Source: Bacteroidota bacterium (GTDB taxonomy: Bacteria > Bacteroidota > Bacteroidia > Flavobacteriales_D > JABDKJ01). Taken from it: a stretch of DNA of 60,999 nucleotides. The position numbers and the translations under genes are program-made. The DNA is taken from positions 1 through 60,999 of the forward strand of contig JBCCIF010000005.1 of assembly GCA_039028335.1 (NCBI GenBank), in the 5' to 3' direction. Positions 2,879 through 49,001 of the stretch are shown piece after piece. Under the pieces are notes generated by a model. It worked only from the letters and a program-made list of their open reading frames with translations. It was not told the DNA's origin and did no database searches. Position 1 is the first letter of the stretch. The number at the start of each line of letters is the position of its first letter.

Positions 2879-4236
2879 TTAATTTTTTCGCGATATAGGA
2901 ATTTTTTCTGGCTGCTTTCAAAGGGCCGATAGATATAATAAGCATATCCATCTCTTATCCGAATTCTTTCAGCATACTTATAATGGAGTTTCTTATTCCC
3001 ACTTACTTCCGCATTCTTTGAATCAATTTTCTTCAAATAGGTAAAACCGTTTCTCGAATAACTGGTCCAAAAAGTTTGTTGAATATCGTCTAAATAAACC
3101 TCTCCATCCCAAGCATTATTCGGCATCCATTTTTCATCGTAGCGCTTGCGTTTATGATAATTGAACTCAATGCTATCAATAGCATTATTCCATTTAGAAT
3201 ACTTCATTAAGCGATCGCTATGATGATCAAAAATTAAAACCGTATCGTTCATGACAAAAAGTGGGGCATTCGGTGTCTCGAAATAAGCCTGTTTATCAAA
3301 GCCTCTCATGTATGCCCCAATAATCTTGCGATCAATTCCTGTTCTGATTGACATATTCGTTGCATCTACCCTATCCCTATTACTTAGATACTTGAATTCA
3401 GATCGCATTAACTCCATTCCAAATTTGTCGCTTATATAGCGTAAAAGGGTATAGGTACTATCTCGGCTATCCAGTGTATAATATTCAAAAGCAGGATATG
3501 AAGGATTGAAATTTGAGAGATAGGTAACGTCCCCAATGGAATCAATTTTAGGCTCCATGAGCTCCGAATAAACGCTCTTCTTTATTTGAATCGTATCGAT
3601 TCGCGCTGAATCCATTTTGAAAAGAATCACATGTTTGTCAGATGACAATATTGGATACTTGCCGTATTTATTTTTGAATTCAAATTGGCCTGAATTTAAT
3701 GGAATGCTATCGCGTATGCGGTTCTCAAAATCCGTACTATAGACCACTACATTCTCGTATATTTCATTCTCGTATTGATCTGCTGACCTTAGGCTTTTTT
3801 CCCTTTGATATGCCAAAACGCATAATCCGCTTTCTGTAAAATCAAAATCACAAACATGCCTTAACTCGTTTGAAAAGACTAACTCGGGCAAGGGATCTGG
3901 AAGAATTTCAGGTCCTTCAAGGATTTTAGAATCGAGGTCCAATTGAAAAAGTTGATTCTGTTGTTCCAAACCCTCATCCAGTGAATTTATCAAACGCTCA
4001 TAGGTCTTATAGGCTACATGCGTTAGTCGAAGTCGCAGAGGAAACTCAATATTCTTCAAAGTAAAAAATCCCTCTTTATTACTCGAGACTCCTCTTTTCG
4101 AATTGAGTTCTATGATATTCACGCCCGCAATCGCTTGACCGGTCTCTTTATCCACAATTCTACCACTGAAGGATTGAGATTTAGCCCAAAAAGGTAATAT
4201 CAAAATCAAGCCGAAGAATATACTTTTGCTTAGCAT
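2872..4236 (-). CDS. Carboxypeptidase-regulatory-like domain secreted protein
   Basis: Signal peptide followed by SGRIVDKETGQAIAGVNI...SNKEGFF...THVAY. Confidence 0.75.
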   Translation of the reverse strand: MLSKSIFFGLILILPFWAKSQSFSGRIVDKETGQAIAGVNIIELNSKRGVSSNKEGFFTLKNIEFPLRLRLTHVAYKTYERLINSLDEGLEQQNQLFQLDLDSKILEGPEILPDPLPELVFSNELRHVCDFDFTESGLCVLAYQREKSLRSADQYENEIYENVVVYSTDFENRIRDSIPLNSGQFEFKNKYGKYPILSSDKHVILFKMDSARIDTIQIKKSVYSELMEPKIDSIGDVTYLSNFNPSYPAFEYYTLDSRDSTYTLLRYISDKFGMELMRSEFKYLSNRDRVDATNMSIRTGIDRKIIGAYMRGFDKQAYFETPNAPLFVMNDTVLIFDHHSDRLMKYSKWNNAIDSIEFNYHKRKRYDEKWMPNNAWDGEVYLDDIQQTFWTSYSRNGFTYLKKIDSKNAEVSGNKKLHYKYAERIRIRDGYAYYIYRPFESSQKKFLYREKINY

Positions 4237-29595: not shown

Positions 29596-29655
29596 ATTTT
29601 GATTTTGATTCAAATTTTGATTTTGATTTGATAGACATTTTAATTTTGATTGAAT
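29596..29655 (+). repeat. (TTTTGA)n degenerate hexamer tract directly upstream of the hemH start
   Basis: cattttgattttgattcaaattttgattttgatttgatagacattttaattttgattgaata followed by GTG. Confidence 0.8.
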
Positions 29656-30686: not shown

Positions 30687-30811
30687 GACAGCTGAAAGCT
30701 GAATCAAAATGGCAATCAAAATGACAGTTGAAAGCTGAATCAAAATATCAATCAAAATGAAAATCAAAATGGATAGAGAAGTATTAATAATTGTCTGTTT
30801 TGATTTTGATT
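30687..30811 (+). repeat. 36-bp tandem duplication plus AATCAAAAT/TTTTGATT hairpin in the hemH-hemG spacer
   Basis: 30687-30722 and 30723-30758 are 33/36 identical; aatcaaaatggatag (30762-30776) pairs with ttgtctgttttgatt (30791-30805) using G-U pairs. Confidence 0.85.
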
Positions 30812-30819
30812 ACTAAGTA

Positions 30820-32118
30820 TTGACCACGCCAAAAAAATATTCAACTATCATACTCGGAGGTGGCCTAAGTGGACTCGCTTCGGCTTTTTATCTGAAGCAA
30901 AAAGGCGAAAAGTTTCTATTAATTGAAAAGGAAGAACAGTGCGGAGGAGTCATTCAATCCTTTGAATTAGATGGTGCAATTTTTGACAAAGCAGCCATCT
31001 CTTTCAGCTTGACTCCTGAAATTCAAGAGATGATTTCTGCTTTGGGAATTGAAGATCAATTGCTTTATCCTAAAGAGCAGAGTAAGAATCGCTTCATCTA
31101 TTCTGCAAATCGACTTCATCGCTTAAGACCCAGCCCCCTTTCTATTTTGACAACTTCATTATTATCATGGAAAGCCAAACGCAGGCTTTTAAAAGAAAGC
31201 AAAGTGAGCAGTCGCTCAGATCAAAACGAAAGCGTTGCGGACTTTATCCGCAGGCGTTTTGGAAATGAACTTTACGAGAAAATTGGCAATGCTGTCATGG
31301 GTGGAATCTATGCCGGTGACCCCGAGCAAATGGAAGCCGCTTTCGTCTTAAAGCGCTTTGTTGATTTGGAGAAAAAATACGGTTCACTTACTAAGAGTAT
31401 GAAAGCTGAAAAGGGCCGCAACAAACGAATTAGCGTATCCTTTAAAAAGGGCACGCAGGACTTAACCAAGGCCTTGGAAAAATATGCCAATGAATGTATC
31501 CTATGCAATACTTCAATTGAAAAAATAGTCCGAAAAGATGGACATTGGGAAATTCAATGCGAAAGCGAGACTTACCAAACGGAGCGCATCATTTCCTGCT
31601 TACCATCTTATGTTTTGGCAAATGTTTTAGACGGATTCGAAGATGAAAAAAAGCGCCTTTTAGACATTCGCTATTGCCAAGTGACGCTTTTACACCTTCT
31701 TTATAGCAATCAGGCTATTGGCATGAATCCGAATGGTTTTGGGTTTCTGATTCCCAAAAAAGAAGAAAAACCCATTTTGGGGGCTGTCATGAATTCGACC
31801 ATTTTTAAAGGTCGGGTAAAAGAAGACCAAACAGCCATTACGCTTTTTATTGGGGATCAAAATTTTGATAACCACTCTAAGGAAAATATAAAGGAAGCCC
31901 AAAGATTCCTGGAAGAAACACTGCAGATAAAAGGAGAAGCATTAACAAAAGAAATCACCTATTGGCCAAAAGCCATTCCTCAATTTCACATGGGGTATTC
32001 CGAAAATATTGAAGTATTGAAAAGTCGATTCGCAAAAGAAGATTTCATTCTCAATGGCAATTATGTCAGTGGGGTGAGTGTAGGTGATGTCATTAAATAT
32101 GCAAAAGATTTAATCTAA
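30820..32118 (+). CDS. hemG: Protoporphyrinogen oxidase, HemY-type FAD enzyme
   Basis: GGGLSGL, GGVIQS, ESVADFIRRRFG, GIYAGDP, GFGFLIP, AIPQF, GNYVSGVSV. Confidence 0.9.
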   Translation: MTTPKKYSTIILGGGLSGLASAFYLKQKGEKFLLIEKEEQCGGVIQSFELDGAIFDKAAISFSLTPEIQEMISALGIEDQLLYPKEQSKNRFIYSANRLHRLRPSPLSILTTSLLSWKAKRRLLKESKVSSRSDQNESVADFIRRRFGNELYEKIGNAVMGGIYAGDPEQMEAAFVLKRFVDLEKKYGSLTKSMKAEKGRNKRISVSFKKGTQDLTKALEKYANECILCNTSIEKIVRKDGHWEIQCESETYQTERIISCLPSYVLANVLDGFEDEKKRLLDIRYCQVTLLHLLYSNQAIGMNPNGFGFLIPKKEEKPILGAVMNSTIFKGRVKEDQTAITLFIGDQNFDNHSKENIKEAQRFLEETLQIKGEALTKEITYWPKAIPQFHMGYSENIEVLKSRFAKEDFILNGNYVSGVSVGDVIKYAKDLI

Positions 32119-39611: not shown

Positions 39612-40373
39612 CTAAACTTTTTCAGCGAAACGCGCTAGCGTATTTTTGGTGTAATCACTCAAAACCAATTTGCCAGACTTCTCTGCGCGTGATTCAAGCA
39701 AGTCATTCCAATGATCTGTGCCTTGCCAAAAAACTTCCTTAAGCAGGCGCTGCGCTTCTGGATTATTGTTTACCAATGTGTTTGCTAAGTTCATAACAGC
39801 TTCATCCATTTCTTCTGCCGAATCAAAAACGTCTGCATAGAGCCCTTTGGATTTTGCCCATTCAGCAGAGTAAAACGCTGTAGCATTGATGGCCATTTGA
39901 GACATAGCGGACATTCCCACCTTGCGCTCAACAGCTGGTCCAACGACAAAAGGTCCAATACCAACTGCCAATTCTGATAATTTTACAGAAGCAAATTTTG
40001 TAGCAAAGCAATAGTCAACTGCTGAAGCAACGCCTACCCCGCCTCCGACTGCTTTTCCTTGTACTCGACCGATGATCAATTTAGGACAGGTCCGGCAGGC
40101 ATTGATCACATTGGCAAAGCCCATGAAAAATTTCTTACCCGTTTCAAAGTCATTAATGGAAATCAATTCATTGAATGAAGCTCCTGCACAAAAAGTACGC
40201 TCTCCTCCACTTTTCAAAACAATTACCACCACCGATTCATCATTGCCTGCATCTGTAATTGCATTCGCTAAGTCAGCCAGGACATTGCTTGGCAAAGAAT
40301 TGTGTGCAGGGTGAAAAAATTCGATTTCTAAAATGCCTTCGGCAAGCCTTGTTGATTTTACGTAAGCTTCCAT
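39612..40373 (-). CDS. Enoyl-CoA hydratase/isomerase family protein (paa-associated)
   Basis: TFCAGAS, VQGKAVGGGVG, LSELAVGIGP. Confidence 0.9.
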   Translation of the reverse strand: MEAYVKSTRLAEGILEIEFFHPAHNSLPSNVLADLANAITDAGNDESVVVIVLKSGGERTFCAGASFNELISINDFETGKKFFMGFANVINACRTCPKLIIGRVQGKAVGGGVGVASAVDYCFATKFASVKLSELAVGIGPFVVGPAVERKVGMSAMSQMAINATAFYSAEWAKSKGLYADVFDSAEEMDEAVMNLANTLVNNNPEAQRLLKEVFWQGTDHWNDLLESRAEKSGKLVLSDYTKNTLARFAEKV

Positions 40374-40384
40374 ATTCCAATTAT

Positions 40385-42922
40385 CTATTTGGCGTTGTTA
40401 GTTAAAAGATTGAATTGCTCAAAATGATGATGGTAGTGCTTGCGCGCTACCAATTCCCAATGAAAATAATCCAAGTTTCCAAAAGAAGGATGATTGGATG
40501 TATGATCCGGATTTTCTTTAAAATGGAGATGATATGCATCAAATGCCTCCATCAATTTCCCTTTCGCTTCTGACAGGTTAGCGAACTGCAATTCTTTGCT
40601 CGTTTTTACCGTAAAAGGCGCTTCAAAATTGCGAGGGAATCCTCTATAGTTATAAAGTGAATCATGGTATTTCTCTAAATGCTCTTTCGGAGTGATAATC
40701 GGCAATTGTTCTTCCGCAATGATCATATGCAACCAATCGTAAAGATGCTCGACCATAGATTGAGGTGTCATCGTTCCCCATTGAGCAGGACTCTCTTCCG
40801 TCAATCGACCCAAAGCATCCTCCAGGTATTCTCTTGTCGGTTCTTGAAAGGGACATTTCTTTTGAACCATGGTTAAGATGGTTGCAATAGCAGCTAGCTC
40901 ATCGTGCTCATCATAGACCTCAACATACCATTTTACAATTCCTGAAGGAAACTCTTTTCCCTTGACATCCCGATCTACTTTCTCTTTGCACGTTAAACGG
41001 ACATAAACCGTATCATTATGATAGATAGGTCGAACGAATCTGCATTCTTCCAGTCCATAATTCGCTGCGACAGGACCTTTATTGGGATATACAAACAATC
41101 CTGCAGCAGCTGCGAGAATAAAGTAGCCATGAGCAGCTCTCTTCTCAAAAATGCTCCCTTCTAAAGAGGTGATATCTGTATGGGCATAGAAATGATCCCA
41201 AGTGAGATTTGCAAAATTAATAATGTCTGAATCCGTTATTGTTCTCTTGTGTGTTTTCAAGGACATACCCGGTTGAATGTCTTCCCAATGGTATTTGAAT
41301 GGGTGACCTTCAGGCGTTTCTTTGTATTTCGCATTGGCTTGATAGATACCGGTAATCTCGGTAATAGTTGTTGGCGTCCCTTGAATGGCGCATCGTTGCA
41401 AATAATGCTCAACTCCGCGCATACCGCCCATTTCTTCTCCTCCTCCTGCTCTTCCAGGTCCGCCATGCACCAACGTTGGTAAAGGAGAACCATGTCCGGT
41501 GCTGAGTTTCGCGTTTTCTCGGTTCATCACCAAAATTCTTCCGTGATGGCTTGCTGCGCCAACTACAAAATCTCTGGCAATATGATCATTGAAAGTTGCA
41601 ATTGAACAACATAAAGAACCCTTCCCCATTTTTGCCAATTGAATGGCATCGTCCAAGTCCCTATACGGCATTAAGGTGCTTACTGGCCCAAAGGCTTCCA
41701 CGTCATGCACAGCAGTGTTCTTATGGGGATCTTTTTCCAACATCAACAAAGGACTCAAGAATGCGCCTTTTTCTGCATCTGCACCGATTAACTCCACTTC
41801 ATCCAAATTCCCATAAACCAATTCACCTGTTTCACTCAACATAGCAACGCGATCTCTTACTTCAGCTACTTGATCTTTACTCGCCAAAGCACCCATGCGA
41901 ACGTCCTTATTCAAAGGATCTCCAATGGTCACTTTTGAAAGTGCTTTACCTAAGGCAATCTGGACATCTTCAAGTAAATTTTCCGGAACGAAAATTCTTC
42001 GAATAGCTGTACACTTCTGTCCGCACTTCACGGTCATCTCTTTGCGAACTTCCTTTATGAAAAGATCAAACTCAGGTGTTCCTGGCTGGGCATCTTCACC
42101 TAAAATTGAGCAATTCAACGAGTCCGCTTCCATATTAAAAGGAACAGCTTCGTTGATGATTCTTTCATGTGCCTTCAACATACGTCCAGTAGAAGCCGAA
42201 CCGGTGAATGTCACGACATCTTGCGATTCTACATGGTCTAATATGCTATGTGCTGATCCACAAATCAATTGCAAAGCTCCTTCAGGTAGAATGCCCGATT
42301 CAATTATCGCTTTGACCACCACCTCGGTTAAATAAGAAGTTGCTGTGGCAGGCTTTACAACAGCAGGAACTCCAGCCATCCAATTGACTGCGCATTTCTC
42401 CAACATACCCCAAACAGGAAAATTAAAAGCGTTGATGTGAATAGCCACTCCTTCTTTGGGAACCATTATATGATGCCCCATGAATGCTCCACCTCTTGAT
42501 AAATCAATCGGTGCGCCATCGACATGAAAAGTCTGATTCGGAAAATTTCTTCTTAGCGATGCATTGGCAAATAAGTTTCCAAAACCACCTTCGATGTCTA
42601 TCCAAGAATCTACTTTAGTCGCTCCTGTGTGAAAAGACACTTTATAAAATTCATCCTTTCTCTTCATCAGGTACATGGCCAATTTCTTAAGCATGTTTCC
42701 CCTTTGCTGAAAAGTCATCTTTCGCAACGCAAGCCCATGATCTCGTCCATATTGAAGGATATCTCCAAAATTCAATCCTTCCGTTGTTGCAAGCGCCACA
42801 ACATCGCCATTTACGGCATTGTATAAGGGTTTACCTTCCCCTTGACCTTCTGTCCATTGGCCTAAAACATAATTTCCTAATTTCATTTTTGTCGCTGTCA
42901 TTGAAGGTGATTCAGTACTCAT
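40385..42922 (-). CDS. paaZ: PaaZ bifunctional aldehyde dehydrogenase/MaoC hydratase with an extra C-terminal DinB-like domain
   Basis: [47 protein letters not shown]; MaoC DHFYAH...AHGYF; extension WGTMT...EHL...HPSFG...HHHFEQF. Confidence 0.95.
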
Positions 42923-44094
42923 TGTTCGATGTGTTGTTCAGTATAAAATTTCTTATTTGCTTTTGCCATAGTGCGCAGCAATCCACAGCATCTATAGCGC
43001 TCTTCATGATAATGTCCATAAAGATCATCTAATCGCTCAACTACTTCGGCTATTCCGATCTCATCTGCCCAAGCCAATAATCCTTTGGGATAATTCACTC
43101 CTTTCGTCATGGCCGTATCGATATCGTCTCTAGACGCGATTCCAAATTGCAATGCATTGGCCGCTTCATCAATCAAGAGGGCCACAATTCTATCCACAAT
43201 TATTTGACCTAAGACGGTATCTTTTTCAGCTTCTGACGTCTCCCCTTCATCGGAATAGTCATAATAGCCGCGCCCCGTTTTTCTTCCATGGTATCCGGCT
43301 TCGCTCAGCCTTTTTTGCGTAAACGAAGGTTTATATCTAGGGTCGTAGTAAAAGGCCGCGAAAACCGTTTCAGTGACCGTATAATTGACATCATTACCAA
43401 TGAAGTCCATCAGTTCAAATGGCCCCATACGGAATCCACCCAGTTCTTTCATCGCCCAATCAATTGTTGCAAAATCGGCTAGGCCTTCTTCGTAAACCCT
43501 CAAGGCCTCGCTATAGAATGGACGCGCTACTTTGTTTACGATGAAGCCCGGAGTATCCTTAGCAATCACCGTCAATTTTTTCCAAGAATCAATAATCGAA
43601 CGTGCCTTCTCTTTGGTTTCTTCCGAAGTCTGGATGGCCGGAATGATCTCCACCAATTTCATCAATGGAACGGGATTGAAAAAGTGAATACCGATGAAAC
43701 GCTCTGGCTTTTCGCAAGCTGCAGCCAATGAAGCAATGGAAAGTGAAGACGTATTTGAAGCAATAATACATTCTTCCGAAACGATGGATTCCAATTCTTG
43801 AAAAACTGATTTTTTAATGTTCAAATCCTCGATAATGGCTTCAATAACCAATCCACAATCTTTCATTTCTTGAAGAGATTGCACGTAAGAGATATTCCCT
43901 TGAATTTTCTCTTTGTCTGTTTCAGAAATGCGTTCTTTCTCAATCAAGCGATTAAGTACTTTATCCAATTTGGCCGCGCTTTTTTCTAAAGCTGAGGCAT
44001 TGGTATCATACACTAAAACTGGATGACCAAAAGTAGCTGCTACTTGTGCAATGCCACTTCCCATTGTTCCAGATCCAATTACTCCTACTTTCAT
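42919..44094 (-). CDS. paaH: 3-hydroxyacyl-CoA dehydrogenase
   Basis: GSGTMGSGIA, EAIIE, SNTSSL, HFFNP, PGFIVN, MGPF; ATG 44094. Confidence 0.9.
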   Translation of the reverse strand: MKVGVIGSGTMGSGIAQVAATFGHPVLVYDTNASALEKSAAKLDKVLNRLIEKERISETDKEKIQGNISYVQSLQEMKDCGLVIEAIIEDLNIKKSVFQELESIVSEECIIASNTSSLSIASLAAACEKPERFIGIHFFNPVPLMKLVEIIPAIQTSEETKEKARSIIDSWKKLTVIAKDTPGFIVNKVARPFYSEALRVYEEGLADFATIDWAMKELGGFRMGPFELMDFIGNDVNYTVTETVFAAFYYDPRYKPSFTQKRLSEAGYHGRKTGRGYYDYSDEGETSEAEKDTVLGQIIVDRIVALLIDEAANALQFGIASRDDIDTAMTKGVNYPKGLLAWADEIGIAEVVERLDDLYGHYHEERYRCCGLLRTMAKANKKFYTEQHIEQ

Positions 44095-44098
44095 ATTC

Positions 44099-44131
44099 AA
44101 TCAAAATCAAAATGAGAATCAAAATTAAAAT
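44099..44131. repeat. Left arm of a 33-bp inverted repeat flanking the OmpA-like gene
   Basis: aatcaaaatcaaaatgagaatcaaaattaaaat; 32/33 reverse complement of 44976-45008. Confidence 0.9.
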
Positions 44132-44219
44132 CAAAAAGTAATTTGACCCTAAGTTGTAAGTGTTGAGTGCTAAATGTTAAGCGAGTATTCAATTTATTTT
44201 TTTTATGCTGAATTCTTAT

Positions 44220-44942
44220 TTATTCATCCCAAGATAAAACCGAAATTTCAGTCCGTTGATTTTTCCTTTTTGCCTCAGATTGTAAATCATCAGGCAATTC
44301 TTCGACTTCTTTTCTAGACCAAACTGGATGTGTATGACCAAAAATGAAAACCTTGAATTTTTCCGGATGTTTATACTCTTTGAAAATATATTCCAGCACC
44401 ACTTCAGTTCTTTCTTTGGATATTCTTTGCGCTTCATTAAATCCAGAGTGCCCTCCTATTGACCAAGTTATCGATGGATTATCTTCGAATACCTGAATCA
44501 ACGTGTCCAAAGTCTTTCTCGTAAGAAAATTTAGTTCGCTTGAATTAAAATCAAATAATACTTCAGAAAGAAATGGAGGATGTGAAACTAAACATTCGGA
44601 CAAAATGAATTCAATTACATAAATTCTGGATTCCGATGCTATTTCTACTTCAATCTCTTCAACTGCCTTCAAGTAATCTTTTCCTACAGCCTCAATTCTA
44701 TATTTTTTCCCTTTTTCAAGAGTGGTTTGTATGGATGAATTCAAGCTGTCTTCAAAAACTATACGCTGATCTTCTAGGTTTATTACGGTTATTTTGAAAC
44801 CCTTTAATTCATTACCCGACTTACTAATAACTTTTGATTCCAATTGGAAAAACTGCGAATCATTTTCTTGACCCAGAATTCGGTCTGCATGGATTATAGA
44901 AAATACTAGAATTAAGAGAATATGTAATATACTGTTTTTCAT
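44220..44942 (-). CDS. OmpA-family protein inserted in the paa operon
   Basis: Signal peptide; VLFDFNSSEL...LDTLIQVFEDNP...IGGHS...SKERTEVV...NQRTEI. Confidence 0.8.
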   Translation of the reverse strand: MKNSILHILLILVFSIIHADRILGQENDSQFFQLESKVISKSGNELKGFKITVINLEDQRIVFEDSLNSSIQTTLEKGKKYRIEAVGKDYLKAVEEIEVEIASESRIYVIEFILSECLVSHPPFLSEVLFDFNSSELNFLTRKTLDTLIQVFEDNPSITWSIGGHSGFNEAQRISKERTEVVLEYIFKEYKHPEKFKVFIFGHTHPVWSRKEVEELPDDLQSEAKRKNQRTEISVLSWDE

Positions 44943-44975
44943 TCCTCAAATTTGAGCTCTCGACTACAATCTAAT

Positions 44976-45008
44976 ATTTTGATTTTGATTCTCATTTTGA
45001 TTTTGATT
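44976..45008. repeat. Right arm of the 33-bp inverted repeat, overlapping the paaD stop
   Basis: attttgattttgattctcattttgattttgatt. Confidence 0.9.
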
Positions 45009-45495
45009 ATTTCAGACATTTAAAATAATCAAAAGGCTCTAAACAATCCTTGCATTGAAAAAGCGCTTTGCATGCAGTCGACCCAAACTGGCTGACTAAT
45101 TTTGTATTTTTCGAACCACACAAAGTGCATTTTACGTGATGCGAATCTCCCAACAAAGCCTGTTTATCCGCACTTTCTTCGAGAGGAGCTGCGATTCCAT
45201 ATTCTTCTAAAGCTTTGCGACCTCTTTCAGTAATCCAATCAGTCGTCCAAGCAGGTGCCAATACCAATTCCACTTCCGACTCGAATTGATGTTCGGCCAG
45301 TATTCTTTCAATGTCATCACCAATAACATCCATAGCAGGACAGCCAGAATATGTGGGTGTGATCTTTACTTTTACTTTTTTGCTCTCAACTTGAACATCT
45401 CTGACTACACCCATATCCATAATAGACAGTACTGGAATCTCAGGGTCATGCACTTGAGCCAATAGCGTTTTGATATGATCTACACTCACTACCAT
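45007..45495 (-). CDS. paaD: Phenylacetyl-CoA epoxidase subunit PaaD
   Basis: DPEIPVLSI, TPTYSGCPAM, PAWTTDWI, CxxC...SQFGSTACKAL...EPFDYFKC; ATG 45495 overlaps the paaC stop. Confidence 0.95.
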   Translation of the reverse strand: MVVSVDHIKTLLAQVHDPEIPVLSIMDMGVVRDVQVESKKVKVKITPTYSGCPAMDVIGDDIERILAEHQFESEVELVLAPAWTTDWITERGRKALEEYGIAAPLEESADKQALLGDSHHVKCTLCGSKNTKLVSQFGSTACKALFQCKDCLEPFDYFKCLK

Positions 45496-46241
45496 TCCAT
45501 ATTGGGATAGGCTCTTTGCATGTATTGCAATTCGGAAAGAATGTATCCCATATTCTCTGAATGCATACCTTTTTTGCCATTGCACCTTCTCCATTTTTTT
45601 TCTGGAATTTCGAGTGTTGCTTCTTTCAATAAACCATCCACTCTTTCGAAATAGGGTTTCTCAATGGTCTTGATATCTCCACCAATTCCTTCTTCACGCA
45701 TATTCTTTTCCAATTCGCTTTCATCAAACAATTCACCTACAAATGGATATAAATGATTGATTGCGTCCTGCATTTTTGAATGGCTTATTTCGGTTCCGTC
45801 TCCGAGCCTTTTCACCCATTCTGAAGAGAAACGCTCATGATAACTGACTTCTTTTATTGCCTTATTGGCAATAGCTGAAATCGTTTCATCTTTGCTATTT
45901 AACAGCTGCTTAACCAATGCCAATTGATAAACATCGAATAAAAACTGTCTTGCAATAACATGCGCAAAATCAGTATTGGGCTGTTCCAACAGAAGGACAT
46001 TGGTGTATTGCCTTTCATTTCTCAAAAATGCAATGTCATCTTCCGTCTTTCCATCATCCGCTAACTTGGCAGCGTATTGAAAGTAATTCCTTACTTGTCC
46101 ATAACAGTCCAAGGAAATATTCGTCAATGCAATGTCCGTTTCTAAATTGGGTCCATGCCCGCATAATTCAGACAAACGATGTCCAAGGATCAGTGAGTTA
46201 TCTCCCAACAGCAAAATATAATCGTAAAGTTTGCTCATCAA
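45489..46241 (-). CDS. paaC: Phenylacetyl-CoA epoxidase subunit PaaC
   Basis: GDNSLILGHRLSELCGHGP, EQPNTDFA, KEVSYH, RLGDGT, QRAYP. Confidence 0.96.
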   Translation of the reverse strand: MMSKLYDYILLLGDNSLILGHRLSELCGHGPNLETDIALTNISLDCYGQVRNYFQYAAKLADDGKTEDDIAFLRNERQYTNVLLLEQPNTDFAHVIARQFLFDVYQLALVKQLLNSKDETISAIANKAIKEVSYHERFSSEWVKRLGDGTEISHSKMQDAINHLYPFVGELFDESELEKNMREEGIGGDIKTIEKPYFERVDGLLKEATLEIPEKKWRRCNGKKGMHSENMGYILSELQYMQRAYPNMEW

Positions 46242-46522
46242 ATGTGTTTTAACTCTTCAGGTAAATCATAAAACGTTGGGTGGCGATATACTTTGTCTTT
46301 CGCAGGTTCAAACATTTCTCCGTTGTCCGCTGGATTGGAAGCATGAATGTTTCTTGACTCAATTACCCATAGGCTGACGCCTTCCATTCTTCTGGTATAG
46401 ACATCTCGTGCATTTTCCATTGCCATTTCAGCATCTGCGGCATGTAAGCTTCCCACATGTCTGTGTTCCAAACCGTTTTTAGACCTTACAAAGATCTCCC
46501 AGATTGGCCATTCTTTTTTCAT
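46238..46522 (-). CDS. paaB: Phenylacetyl-CoA epoxidase subunit PaaB
   Basis: WPIWEIFVR, HVGSLHA, ARDVYTRR, KVYRHPTFY. Confidence 0.96.
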   Translation of the reverse strand: MKKEWPIWEIFVRSKNGLEHRHVGSLHAADAEMAMENARDVYTRRMEGVSLWVIESRNIHASNPADNGEMFEPAKDKVYRHPTFYDLPEELKHI

Positions 46523-46548: not shown

Positions 46549-46926
46549 CTACAAAGACTTCGACTTCTGCTTTTTTAAATAACTGATATAACCGTTCATA
46601 ATTCTTTCTATTTTATCGATTTGCACCTTCATCAGTTCAAATGTATTCTCTGTTATCAACTCACAATCCAGCGCATCCGTTAAGTGATTCAATGTTTCTG
46701 TGAGAGATCCTCGAGCCATTCTAGTAAATTGAATGTTTTCTTGAAAATGGTAACGGCCATGGCCCTCAGCTAGGTTTGCACAGATGGATCTTGTGCTCCG
46801 TATCATTTGGTCAACCATCCTGAATTTCTCTTCATTCGGGAATTTTTTGGTCAGGTCATAGATTTCCTTGCGAAGTTTTCGTGACTCTTTCCATACTTCC
46901 AATTCTGTGAATTTTAGATACGCCAT
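46549..46926 (-). CDS. Four helix bundle protein (23S rRNA intervening-sequence protein family)
   Basis: ELEVWKES, FPNEEKFRMVDQMIRSTRSICANLAEG, ARGSLTE; lies between paaA and paaB. Confidence 0.93.
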   Translation of the reverse strand: MAYLKFTELEVWKESRKLRKEIYDLTKKFPNEEKFRMVDQMIRSTRSICANLAEGHGRYHFQENIQFTRMARGSLTETLNHLTDALDCELITENTFELMKVQIDKIERIMNGYISYLKKQKSKSL

Positions 46927-46968: not shown

Positions 46969-47922
46969 TTAAGCACTCTTTGCCATGTGCTCTTTCTTCA
47001 ATTCTTGCTTCTCGGCATAGGCCACCGCAGCATCTCTCACCCATGTCCCTTCTTCCCACGCTTTAACCCTCGCTCCCAATCGCTCCTTGTTGCATGGACC
47101 ATTTCCTTTGACTACTTCCCAAAACTCCTCCCAGTCAATTTCACCAAAATCATAATGCCCTCTTTCCTCATTCCATTTTAAATCAGGGTCGGGAACAGTT
47201 AAGCCTAAATATTCTGCTTGTGGAACAGTAATGTCAACAAATTGCTGTCGCAATTCATCGTTCGTCTTTCTTTTGATCTTCCATTTCATGGCCTGTTCTG
47301 TGTGCGGTGAATCCTCATCTCTTGGTCCAAACATCATAAGCGATGGCCACCAAAATCGATTCAATGCATCTTGGGCCATTTCTTTTTGCTCTGGCGTTCC
47401 TTGCGCCAGACCAATCATAATTTCATATCCCTGTCTTTGATGAAAAGACTCTTCTTTGCAAATCCTCACCATAGCTCTGGCATAGGGACCGAAAGAAGTT
47501 CTGGTCAACATAACTTGATTGATAATGGCTGCTCCATCGACCAACCAACCGATAGCTCCAATGTCGGCCCAAGAAAGCGTAGGGTAATTGAAAATCGAAG
47601 AATATTTCGCTTTTCCGGTATGAAGCTGATCAAACAATTCGTCCCGAGAAATCCCTAAAGTCTCCGCTGCAGAATACAAATAAAGACCATGTCCTGCTTC
47701 ATCTTGCACCTTGGCCAACAAGCCCACTTTTCTTCGAAGATTTGGTGCGCGAGTTATCCAGTTTCCTTCTGGTAGCATCCCCACAATCTCGGAATGTGCA
47801 TGTTGAGAAATCTGACGGATATGTGTTTTTCTATACTTTTCCGGCATCCAGTCTTTTGGCTCGATATTCTCGCCTTGATCAATACGCGATTGGAATAGTT
47901 CGTCTAAATTCACTTCTTTCAT
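46969..47922 (-). CDS. paaA: Phenylacetyl-CoA epoxidase subunit PaaA
   Basis: [43 protein letters not shown]. Confidence 0.97.
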
Positions 47923-47933
47923 AAAATCTTCAT

Positions 47934-49001
47934 TTAATTGTCAAAATCGACCACCACCTTATCTGAGCAAGGAATGGCCTGACACGTTAATACATAACCC
48001 GCTTCTACTTCCTCTTGTTCTAGGGCATAATTCAGTTCCATTTTCACTTCCCCTTCAATCACCTTGGCCTTGCATGTGCTGCATACACCGCCTTTACATG
48101 CAAAAGGGAGATCTGCCGAATTAGCCAAAGCTGCGTCAAGGATATTATTGGATCCTTGATGAATAACAAAATTAAAGGAGTTGGCTCCATCCAAAATCGT
48201 CACATCTGATTTCAAACCTACCATTTCATCTTTAATGATTCTTTCACCCTTTTTTCTTTCAGGTGAGCCGAATAATTCAAAATGAATATGCTTTGTATCA
48301 AAGTTCTTCAATTCTAAATAATCCTTCACCATAAATATCATTTCTTCTGGACCGCAAATGAAAATATCGTCCATGGTTTCGACCGGTGTCAAATCTCGGA
48401 AGATCACTTCCAACTTTTCTTGATCTAATCTACCATTGTATAATTCAACGCCTCTTTTCTGCTTTGTTAAAAAATGGAAGACCTCAAATCGCTCCATAAA
48501 TCGATTCTTGAGCGCTTCAATCTCCTCCTTAAGAATTATTGAACCAACTGTTTGATTGATGTAGAAAAGATTAAATGTTGCATTCGGCTCTGCTTCTAGA
48601 TGTGTCTTGATAATAGAAAAAATAGGTGTGATACCGCTACCAGCAGCTATTGCCACATAATTTCTCTTAGATTTTGGATCGCATTCAACAAAGAAATTCC
48701 CATTGGGAGCCATGACATCAAGTTCATCTCCTATTTGAAGTTTTTCATTTGCAAAAGTACTGAACTTGCCTCCCGGGACTTTTTTAATACCCACGCTCCA
48801 TTGACTGTCATGTGGACTCGTGCACAAAGAATAGGAACGTTGAACACTTTCACCATTTATTTCTGCCCTTAATGTTAAATATTGCCCTTGTTTAAAGGCA
48901 AATTCATCAGCTAAACCATTGACTTCAAAAGAAATGATACTGCAATCATTTGTTGTCTTCTCAATATTCGAAATTTTTAAGGTATGAAATCTTGAGCCCA
49001 T
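47934..49001 (-). CDS. paaE: Phenylacetyl-CoA epoxidase reductase PaaE
   Basis: [19 protein letters not shown], 2Fe-2[10 protein letters not shown]...LTCQ. Confidence 0.93.

Follow-up and report, generated by a model that had tools for sequence, protein, structure and literature searches.

An OmpA-like gene enclosed by a hexamer-built inverted repeat between paaD and paaH: a probable intervening-sequence-type cassette in a Bacteroidota operon

How does an unrelated gene come to stand inside a conserved operon, with one arm of an inverted repeat on the stop codon before it and the other arm just before the start codon after it? This question is raised by the phenylacetate-degradation (paa) operon of a Bacteroidota bacterium (assembly GCA_039028335.1), in which an OmpA-like gene lies between paaD and paaH. 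The window, meaning the whole stretch of DNA that was analysed, comprises positions 1 to 60,999 of contig JBCCIF010000005.1 (60,999 nucleotides, nt). The genome carrying the window is designated G000 (3.44 Mb, 202 contigs, 91.7% complete), G001 is its sister species, and the other G-codes denote further genomes of the order.

The locus is probably an intercistronic cassette of the intervening-sequence type, in which a lineage-specific palindromic element carries an unusual cargo in its loop. The usual forms of this element are a bare intergenic hairpin or a hairpin with a PF05635 gene. Computation establishes the anatomy of the locus, the family of repeats, the sibling cassettes, the orthologous junctions that lack a cargo, and the fold as a prediction. 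The parts of the locus are given below in the sense direction.

45007-45594, minus strand: paaD, the upstream host gene (Pfam Zn_ribbon_PaaD 77.8 bits, FeS_assembly_P 59.7 bits)
44976-45008, minus strand: 5' arm, sense sequence AATCAAAATCAAAATGAGAATCAAAATCAAAAT, whose first two bases are the last two of the paaD stop
44943-44975, minus strand: leader from the 5' arm to the cargo ATG, 33 nt of unique sequence
44220-44942, minus strand: cargo, an open reading frame (ORF) of 240 aa (Pfam OmpA 27.5 bits)
44132-44219, minus strand: trailer from the cargo stop to the 3' arm, 88 nt
44099-44131, minus strand: 3' arm, the complement of the 5' arm except at one of the 33 positions
42919-44094, minus strand: paaH, 3-hydroxyacyl-CoA dehydrogenase, the downstream host gene (3HCDH_N 208.9 bits)

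The repeat search placed the two 33-nt arms at 44099-44131 and 44976-45008, with 97% complementarity (32/33) and 844 nt between them; the whole cassette measures 910 bp. On the sense strand, the paaD stop TAA occupies 45009-45007 and the 5' arm begins at 45008, which gives an overlap of 2 nt. At the other end, 4 nt (GAAT) separate the end of the 3' arm (44099) from the paaH ATG (44094-44092). An earlier annotation of the window, made by a model from the letters alone and called here the sequence-only reading, had described this repeat and its position at the two codons correctly. The arms consist of AATCAA hexamers, as had also been noted, with one deviant central hexamer, AATGAG, and the two arm centres share the odd triplet in complementary form (GAG/CTC). 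The lone mismatch between the arms (A-C, not a wobble) gives TAATTTTG in the sense strand of the 3' arm. At up to three mismatches, the 33-mer was matched three times in the window and in 0 of 100 dinucleotide shuffles of the window.

According to the ORF list, the 844-nt interior contains the 240-aa ORF, a nested 73-aa ORF and nothing else. No transposase was found in the interior and no target-site duplication was visible at the arm ends, where the flanks are GAAAT and GAATA; both absences bear out the sequence-only reading. The interior had no match in the rest of G000 and contained no PF05635 remnant. An Rfam scan of 43800-45300 yielded no family above threshold and two sub-threshold miRNA matches only. 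Contigs built by a second assembler from the probable source run span both arm/cargo joints; therefore, the arms are not chimeric assembly joins. If the base preceding the 5' arm were joined to the two bases past the 3' arm, they would make an in-frame stop that precedes the paaH ATG by two bases, and it is conceivable that this joined stop marks a former tight paaD-paaH junction.

At the RNA level, the sequence-only reading had predicted that the arms would pair. The minimum-energy fold of the minus strand of 44080-45030 pairs them (z = -2.6), and the 27 contiguous pairs nearest the stop and the start reach predicted probabilities of 0.65-1.0 in both 1.0-kb and 1.5-kb contexts. The arm duplex was calculated at -34.7 kcal/mol, and each arm folded on its own is nearly unstructured. 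A helix of such length is a classical RNase III substrate, and G000 encodes an RNase III (105.7 bits). In a simple scan, no terminator-like site was found on the sense strand inside the cassette. A sigma-70 promoter scan, whose model does not describe Bacteroidetes promoters, gave 3 sites against 4.5 expected.

The bracket was then ranked within G000 by a flank score, defined for each of 2,634 crude gene calls (ATG-only ORFs, which miss paaD and some real starts) as the best ungapped inverted match that its two 150-nt flanks form with each other. The OmpA-like gene was first with a score of 30. Next, with a score of 20, came a PF05635 gene of contig C164 that shares the arm family and the architecture, and the ferrochelatase gene of the window scored 14. 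As background, scores of at least 10 occurred in 187 of the 2,634 calls and scores of at least 12 in 22. A self-BLAST of G000 found seven inverted repeats within 5 kb (E<=0.1), among which only the arms of the cassette are more than 300 nt apart. G000 also contains large perfect inverted repeats at C83:13936-14224, C22:38544-38784 and C21:39140-39473 (arms of 126, 99 and 61 nt), and similar ones at the starts of contigs C31, C112 and C111. The loops of these large palindromes are 38-213 nt, and the palindromes could be real or assembly artefacts.

The arms are copies of a lineage-specific palindromic repeat family that lies mostly between genes. On this point the sequence-only reading, which had treated the arms as part of the cassette, is corrected, for they are not unique to it and belong to a lineage-wide repeat. 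The 15-mer core of the arm occurred 44 times in 30 clusters of G000 at up to one mismatch, and 13 of the 20 arrays of at least 18 nt were intergenic by crude ORF calls, compared with 13.7% non-coding DNA. The 33-nt unit, defined as two 15-mers flanking a free triplet, was found seven times in G000 at up to two mismatches, as single copies in G001, G003, G005 and G144, and as two overlapping copies in G039. It was present in 6 of 301 genomes of the order, four of them within the eight genomes of the window's family, and the reversed control gave 0. The AATGAG centre shared by the two cassette arms differs from the other five copies in G000.

Bare hairpins of the same family were found in the window itself and on contig C164 of G000. 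The one in the window is the following.

30750-30811, plus strand: bare hairpin in the ferrochelatase/protoporphyrinogen-oxidase spacer, with a loop of 26 nt

Its 3' arm sits 8 nt before a putative TTG start at 30820. A scan of species representatives with the unit, its centre left free, returned at least 118 matching stretches, of which 80 were examined (L056-L135). We set aside 68 of the 80 as plain (AATCAA)n microsatellites from many phyla. Of the 12 matches with a non-microsatellite centre, 11 belong to metagenome-assembled genomes (MAGs) labelled Saprospiraceae and one to a MAG labelled Chitinophagales. Seven of these 12 were bare hairpins, six with loops of about 18-27 nt and one (L099) with a loop of about 90 nt, and the loops were alike within one MAG. 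In all hairpins of the family, the A-rich arm comes first. The central triplets of six hairpins, a small sample judged by eye, were complementary at 3, 2, 3, 2, 2 and 1 of 3 positions. In a Chitinophagales MAG (L120, 1287-2953), seven hexamer-unit arrays of the same orientation were spaced 150-550 nt apart.

In metagenomes, the exact 33-mer matched 0 stretches. A 21-mer scan returned 87 stretches, and none of the 80 examined had an inverted partner within 4 kb; 47 of the 80 run on into one and the same unrelated sequence, so that these matches are not this element. Contigs of three marine metagenome runs stacked on the arms only (44973-45023 and 44099-44136, summed depth up to 757), which indicates that arm-like hexamer arrays are common in other community members.

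The paaD-paaH junction was compared among relatives through 30 of 38 paaD matches, those with loci, and paaH lay inside the 1.5-kb flank in eight relatives. In G003 and G007, the spacer of 115-117 nt is a bare hairpin of ATTCAA hexamers, with arms of 14-15 nt at 86-93% and loops of 82-84 nt. Its 5' arm overlaps the paaD stop and its 3' arm is located at the paaH start, with 4 nt between it and the ATG in G003. The G001 spacer is 294 nt long and has other inverted repeats and no gene. The same junction holds an APP1-type phosphatase gene in G005 and G002 (on stretch L176 in G002), and a 258-260-aa ORF in G009, G018, G028 and G032 from other families, which was scanned as an enoyl-CoA hydratase in G009 and is similar by eye in the other three. 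Thus, the bare hairpins, the gene-less spacer and the different cargo for which the sequence-only reading had proposed to look in relatives were all encountered. Within the G001 spacer (L014 2120-2235), a different GC-rich palindromic stretch beginning CCCCGATTAAAATCGGGG resembles another small repeat element.

These junctions bear most directly on the rival explanation that survives best, although we hold it to be possible and no better than that. It states that the junction hairpin is an older, ordinary intercistronic RNA element for stability, processing or coupling, and that a gene landed in its loop while the arms did not move. The cargo-free hairpins of G003 and G007, with the same stop/start geometry at the same junction, are what it would expect, as are the bare hairpins of the identical arm family at 30750-30811 and on C164. 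The cargo also keeps a 33-nt leader and an 88-nt trailer inside the arms, while PF05635 cargos start 0-1 nt past the arm. However, the hairpins of G003 and G007 are built from another hexamer, and G001 has neither the hairpin nor the gene. The arms in G000 agree in 32 of 33 positions, as expected from a recent inverted duplication more than from an old hairpin, and the same arms accompany one PF05635 subfamily.

This PF05635 association is also evidence for the cassette reading. Genes for PF05635 'four-helix-bundle' proteins are very common and function-less in Bacteroidota and cyanobacteria. On C164, the stop of a TfoX_N-like gene is followed directly by an arm, one base and a 124-aa PF05635 ORF (46.4 bits), and then by the complementary arm, five bases and the ATG of a helix-turn-helix (HTH) gene. 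In G007, G005 and G002, which represent two other genera of the family, a 141-146-aa PF05635-like ORF lies between paaH and paaZ, and its proteins are 49-53% identical to the C164 protein; their sub-threshold matches cover most of the PF05635 profile. In all three, the paaH stop overlaps an arm whose centre is AATGAG, like that of the window's arms, and 3-5 nt separate the end of a T-type arm from the paaZ ATG. G005 has an extra bare hairpin past the cargo, and in G002 the cargo is flanked by hairpins on both sides. No insert occupies the paaH-paaZ junction of G003, from the genus of G005 and G007, or that of G000 and G001. The interpretation in the sequence-only reading is thus borne out in part, namely in the behaviour of the unit as an intervening-sequence-like cassette, with the same arms bracketing PF05635 genes in the order stop, arm, gene, arm, start.

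C164 is a short contig of 4.4 kb that carries three PF05635 genes (loci L052 and L055). One of them, at 3681-4079, has eight tandem GTCTTGG heptamers in front of it and a complementary CAAGAC motif behind it; these heptamer arrays are another tandem-repeat arm type.

PF05635 was detected in 32 of 41 genomes searched, with five matches in G000. For a census across the order, the best match per genome was taken (30 loci), and L195 (internal stop) and L190 (contig edge) were removed, leaving 28 loci that include the window's own gene (L200). The flank inverted-repeat score reached at least 10 in 20 of the 28 and at least 12 in 17, compared with 2 of 28 at 10 or more for the direct-repeat control. 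The arms are unrelated in sequence between loci and mostly consist of quasi-tandem 6-8-nt units. By crude ORF calls, 16 of the 20 positive loci have a co-directional stop no more than 24 nt from the 5' arm (no more than 5 nt in 10 of them), and 15 of the 20 have a co-directional start no more than 36 nt from the 3' arm. A structural role in pairing is thus favoured over a sequence-specific one, because unrelated arm sequences bracket PF05635 genes across the order, because the flank repeats are inverted and not direct, and because the arms provide or adjoin the stop and start next to them.

The census also bears on an explanation that we regard as unlikely, namely that the arms are terminal inverted repeats of a non-autonomous DNA element with a passenger, of the miniature inverted-repeat transposable element (MITE) or mobile-insertion-cassette type, and that RNA pairing is a by-product. 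Such an element would fit the multi-copy arm family, the MITE-like bare copies with semi-conserved loops in the Saprospiraceae-labelled MAGs, and the presence or absence of cassettes at exact gene junctions among relatives. It would also fit an AT-rich orphan cargo, and one PF05635 subfamily with the same arms in two unrelated contexts. However, none of the copies read has a target-site duplication. In G000, at its 91.7% completeness, no Y1/RAYT transposase was found (PF01797, 0 matches), and none of any kind is encoded in the cassette. The PF05635 arms of unrelated sequence across the order are unlike ends recognised by one transposase, and the arms lie exactly at stops and starts and supply the host stop codon. 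No joint that skips the cassette, that is, no empty site, was present in the contigs of the three marine metagenome runs.

Some copies of the repeat stand before start codons without a partner. In the window, these are found at the ferrochelatase gene.

29596-29651, plus strand: three T-type units, the last of them 5 nt short of the GTG start of ferrochelatase (29657)

No upstream partner arm accompanies them. Downstream of the ferrochelatase stop (30700-30811), several A-type units occur together with the bare hairpin; the arrays on the two sides of the gene are complementary in the opposite, T-first order, so that alternative pairings are possible. A hexamer-array unit also lies in the leader of a tadA-like deaminase gene (C1:78364-78383 in G000; C1:515117-515149, L045, in G001), where it is kept 5-8 nt before the ATG in both species without a nearby partner arm. 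Four candidate arm pairs in G003 and G001 (L177-L180) were rejected, as they contain same-orientation arrays only and show no cargo pattern.

An arm may thus act alone as a leader or promoter piece. Extended to the whole locus, this gives an explanation in which each arm works alone, as single-stranded or double-stranded sequence, the T-type as a portable leader for the downstream gene (a U-rich region for translation initiation, or a promoter facing outward) and the A-type as a cargo leader, and the complementarity is incidental to the use of one module in both orientations. We find this doubtful, and more so than a DNA element. Its basis is that T-type arrays end 3-8 nt before about ten start codons, some without a partner arm; the sites are paaH, ferrochelatase, the putative hemY, tadA in G000 and G001, the HTH gene on C164, and paaZ in G002, G005 and G007. 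Two species whose PaaD proteins share only 73% identity have both retained the tadA array. The octamer TAATTTTG recurs upstream of ferrochelatase, tadA and genes on C57 and C11, and it resembles what we take to be the Bacteroidetes -7 promoter box. However, no -33-type motif lies before paaH at the spacing that we presume for it, and independent arms leave unexplained both the shared complementary central triplet (GAG/CTC) and the excess of inverted over direct flank repeats at PF05635 genes (20/28 vs 2/28). Finally, chance placement of two independent AATCAA microsatellite-like arrays in opposite orientation around a gene is very improbable, for although pure (AATCAA)n arrays occur in many phyla and depth spikes at the arms show similar sequence to be common in the source metagenomes, the 32/33 identity includes a non-repeat centre unlike the other five G000 copies, 100 shuffles gave no match, and the gene heads 2,634 genes with one of the same architecture ranked second.

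The cargo was examined as a protein. Its Pfam match to OmpA (27.5 bits) is marginally above the cut-off of 27.2. The AlphaFold model (pLDDT 86.8), built on an alignment of 25 distant relatives, shows a signal-type helix, a 7-strand beta-sandwich and an alpha/beta OmpA_C-like domain. This last domain matched PorE-C, OmpA-C, Pal and OprF-C in Foldseek (probability 1.00, TMt 0.6-0.78), and R178, N228 and R230 are invariant among the 25 aligned sequences. The predicted fold is therefore of the OmpA_C-like peptidoglycan-binding type, a firmer assignment than the Pfam score, and the OmpA-like label of the sequence-only reading holds.

No kin above 30% identity was found among 1.84 billion representatives (next best E-value 1.4e-13), and a search of 5.8 billion clustered sequences recovered only the cargo itself. 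The best match in G001 is 27% identical and lies on a different contig. The GC content of the cargo is 33.2% (27% at third codon positions, GC3), compared with 38-44% (GC3 34-41%) for the paa genes. As one part of the joint favoured reading, we consider with fair confidence that the cargo is a foreign AT-rich gene for a small secreted peptidoglycan-binding protein, an orphan by sequence.

The remaining genes of the operon, with identities from Pfam, are as follows.

47934-49001, minus strand: reductase with PaaE-type domains (FAD_binding_6, NAD_binding_1, Fer2)
46969-47922, minus strand: paaA
46549-46926, minus strand: PF05635 '23S rRNA intervening sequence protein' gene between paaA and paaB (117 bits)
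46238-46522, minus strand: paaB
45489-46241, minus strand: paaC
40385-42922, minus strand: paaZ-like fusion
39612-40373, minus strand: enoyl-CoA hydratase

The paaH stop overlaps the start of the paaZ-like gene. Read from its first ATG, the paaD ORF overlaps paaC by 106 nt (45489-45594) and its Pfam domains begin at residue 40; the true paaD start is thus probably further downstream. The PF05635 gene at 46549-46926 is a second guest in this operon. It lies between a short split inverted repeat of 10 + 9 nt, GGTTATAGAG/CTCTATAACC plus GTTATATGG/CCATATAAC, whose sequence differs from the cassette arms. A covariation analysis through this gene was dropped; the G001 protein is 54.5% identical and is not encoded next to paaB.

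Co-transcription, pairing in vivo, cleavage, coupling and mobility are steps that we infer. In the favoured reading, the cassette would be co-transcribed with the paa operon, and its arms would pair into a helix of about 27-33 bp, loop out about 850 nt and bring the paaD stop beside the paaH start. The helix would shield the operon from the insert. The most likely route of shielding would be RNase III processing, as in rRNA intervening sequences that carry the same protein family. As a second or added route, ribosomes ending at paaD may unwind the foot of the stem, where the initiation region of paaH lies. Bacteroidetes are known for translation initiation without a Shine-Dalgarno sequence. 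The cargo may have entered by insertion into an existing junction hairpin, or the arms and the cargo may have moved as a unit, and either may hold.

Several findings weigh against this reading. The OmpA-type cassette is carried by one genome only. The inverted, direct and shuffled-pair flank scores were distributed alike in G000 save 2-3 outliers, so a genome-wide enrichment of gene-bracketing inverted repeats was not found; such bracketing is not a general habit of G000, and the outliers share one repeat. T-type arrays lie 3-8 nt before start codons without a partner arm at ferrochelatase and at tadA in G000 and G001, and thus the juxtaposition of stop and start is not the sole possible reason for the geometry. 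The paaH-paaZ cargo proteins of the three relatives score 24.9-29 bits, below the PF05635 cut-off of 33.8. The cassette arms of G007 and G005 pair over about 9 + 9 bp with a mismatched middle, which indicates that strong pairing is not conserved. A search of sequencing runs returned one marine-metagenome DNA run, probably the source, and no RNA run with the locus. Moreover, an RNase III cut at the stem would sever paaABCD from paaH onward and need not be harmless.

A broader reading is that PF05635-type intervening sequences form a general class of operon-dwelling cassettes in Bacteroidota. They would be looped between tandem-repeat arms at stop and start codons and removed or neutralised through RNase III or coupling, with portable arms that exchange cargo, and the OmpA-like gene would be the first non-PF05635 passenger. 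We consider this generalisation unlikely as it stands. As a bolder and speculative extension of it, an Avd-like PF05635 protein might help the cassettes to spread via an RNA intermediate.

If the arms truly neutralise the 850-nt insert in RNA, they would be a natural design for placing a foreign gene in an operon without polarity. The locus would then link rRNA intervening sequences, PF05635 genes and transcribed palindromic repeats, which are usually treated apart. If the descriptive part alone holds, the locus is a clear case of a lineage-specific palindromic repeat hosting genes in its loop. For annotation, short repeat-flanked guests in conserved operons are easily mistaken for operon members. 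In the literature searched, which included few subscription journals, no description was found of PF05635 cassettes between protein-coding operon genes, of tandem-repeat arms set at stop/start codons, of the present hexamer-array repeat, or of a PF05635-type cassette with other cargo. Intervening sequences in rRNA and transcribed palindromic repeats are themselves already known.

Among known palindromic repeats, the Correia/NEMIS elements of Neisseria, ERIC/IRU of enterobacteria and REP/BIME of E. coli are likewise short intergenic inverted repeats in operons. They are co-transcribed as RNA hairpins, are possible targets of RNase III or RNase E, and have lineage-specific copy numbers. The bare copies of the arm family resemble such transcribed palindromes. 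However, the cassette has a gene in its loop, whereas those elements have none, and its arms are tandem hexamers and not a unique sequence. A TA duplication accompanies Correia elements but was not observed at the cassette. The arrays of the arm family are mostly extragenic (13 of 20 long arrays), and their count is low, at about 30 15-mer clusters and 7 full units. REPs occur in hundreds of copies together with a RAYT, whereas about ten sites and no Y1 transposase were found in the 91.7%-complete G000.

MITEs are non-coding, shorter than about 500 bp and present as many near-identical whole copies. In the cassette, only the arms are repeated and the interior is unique in G000, and the whole element measures 910 bp with a 240-aa ORF. 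Mobile insertion cassettes and cargo MITEs are similar in having a transposase-free passenger gene between inverted repeats and a patchy distribution among relatives. However, the ends of mobile insertion cassettes are those of known IS families and come with target duplications, and neither was observed at this locus. Nor are they known to insert precisely at a stop/start junction in such a way that an arm provides the stop codon, as in this cassette. Integron cassettes are also promoter-less single-gene units in a co-transcribed array, with imperfect palindromes and interchangeable cargo. They carry attC on one side and lie next to intI/attI, whereas the present cassette has two arms and lies in a catabolic operon.

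The closest comparison is with the intervening sequences of 23S rRNA. The cassette differs from them in its host, a protein-coding operon between paaD and paaH and not helix 45 of 23S rRNA, and in its cargo, which is of the OmpA_C type and not S23p/PF05635, the family encoded by the large intervening sequences. Its arms abut stop and start codons and are copies of a genome-wide hexamer-array repeat, unlike theirs. The likenesses concern the architecture. As described in PMC4990558, the 23S intervening sequence of Coxiella has a 28-bp stem with one mismatch and one bulge, an S23p ORF, and an RNase III cut midway along the stem. Like the intervening sequences of Coxiella burnetii and Leptospira covered there, the cassette forms a stretch of a few hundred nt within a transcribed unit, exceeds its host in AT content, and has complementary ends of about 28-33 nt with about one mismatch (PMC4990558); its own stem is a predicted one. 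Its sibling cassettes carry the intervening-sequence protein family PF05635 itself, and G000 has the gene for RNase III, the enzyme that cuts the rRNA stems (PMC4990558) and that would cleave the cassette in the favoured reading.

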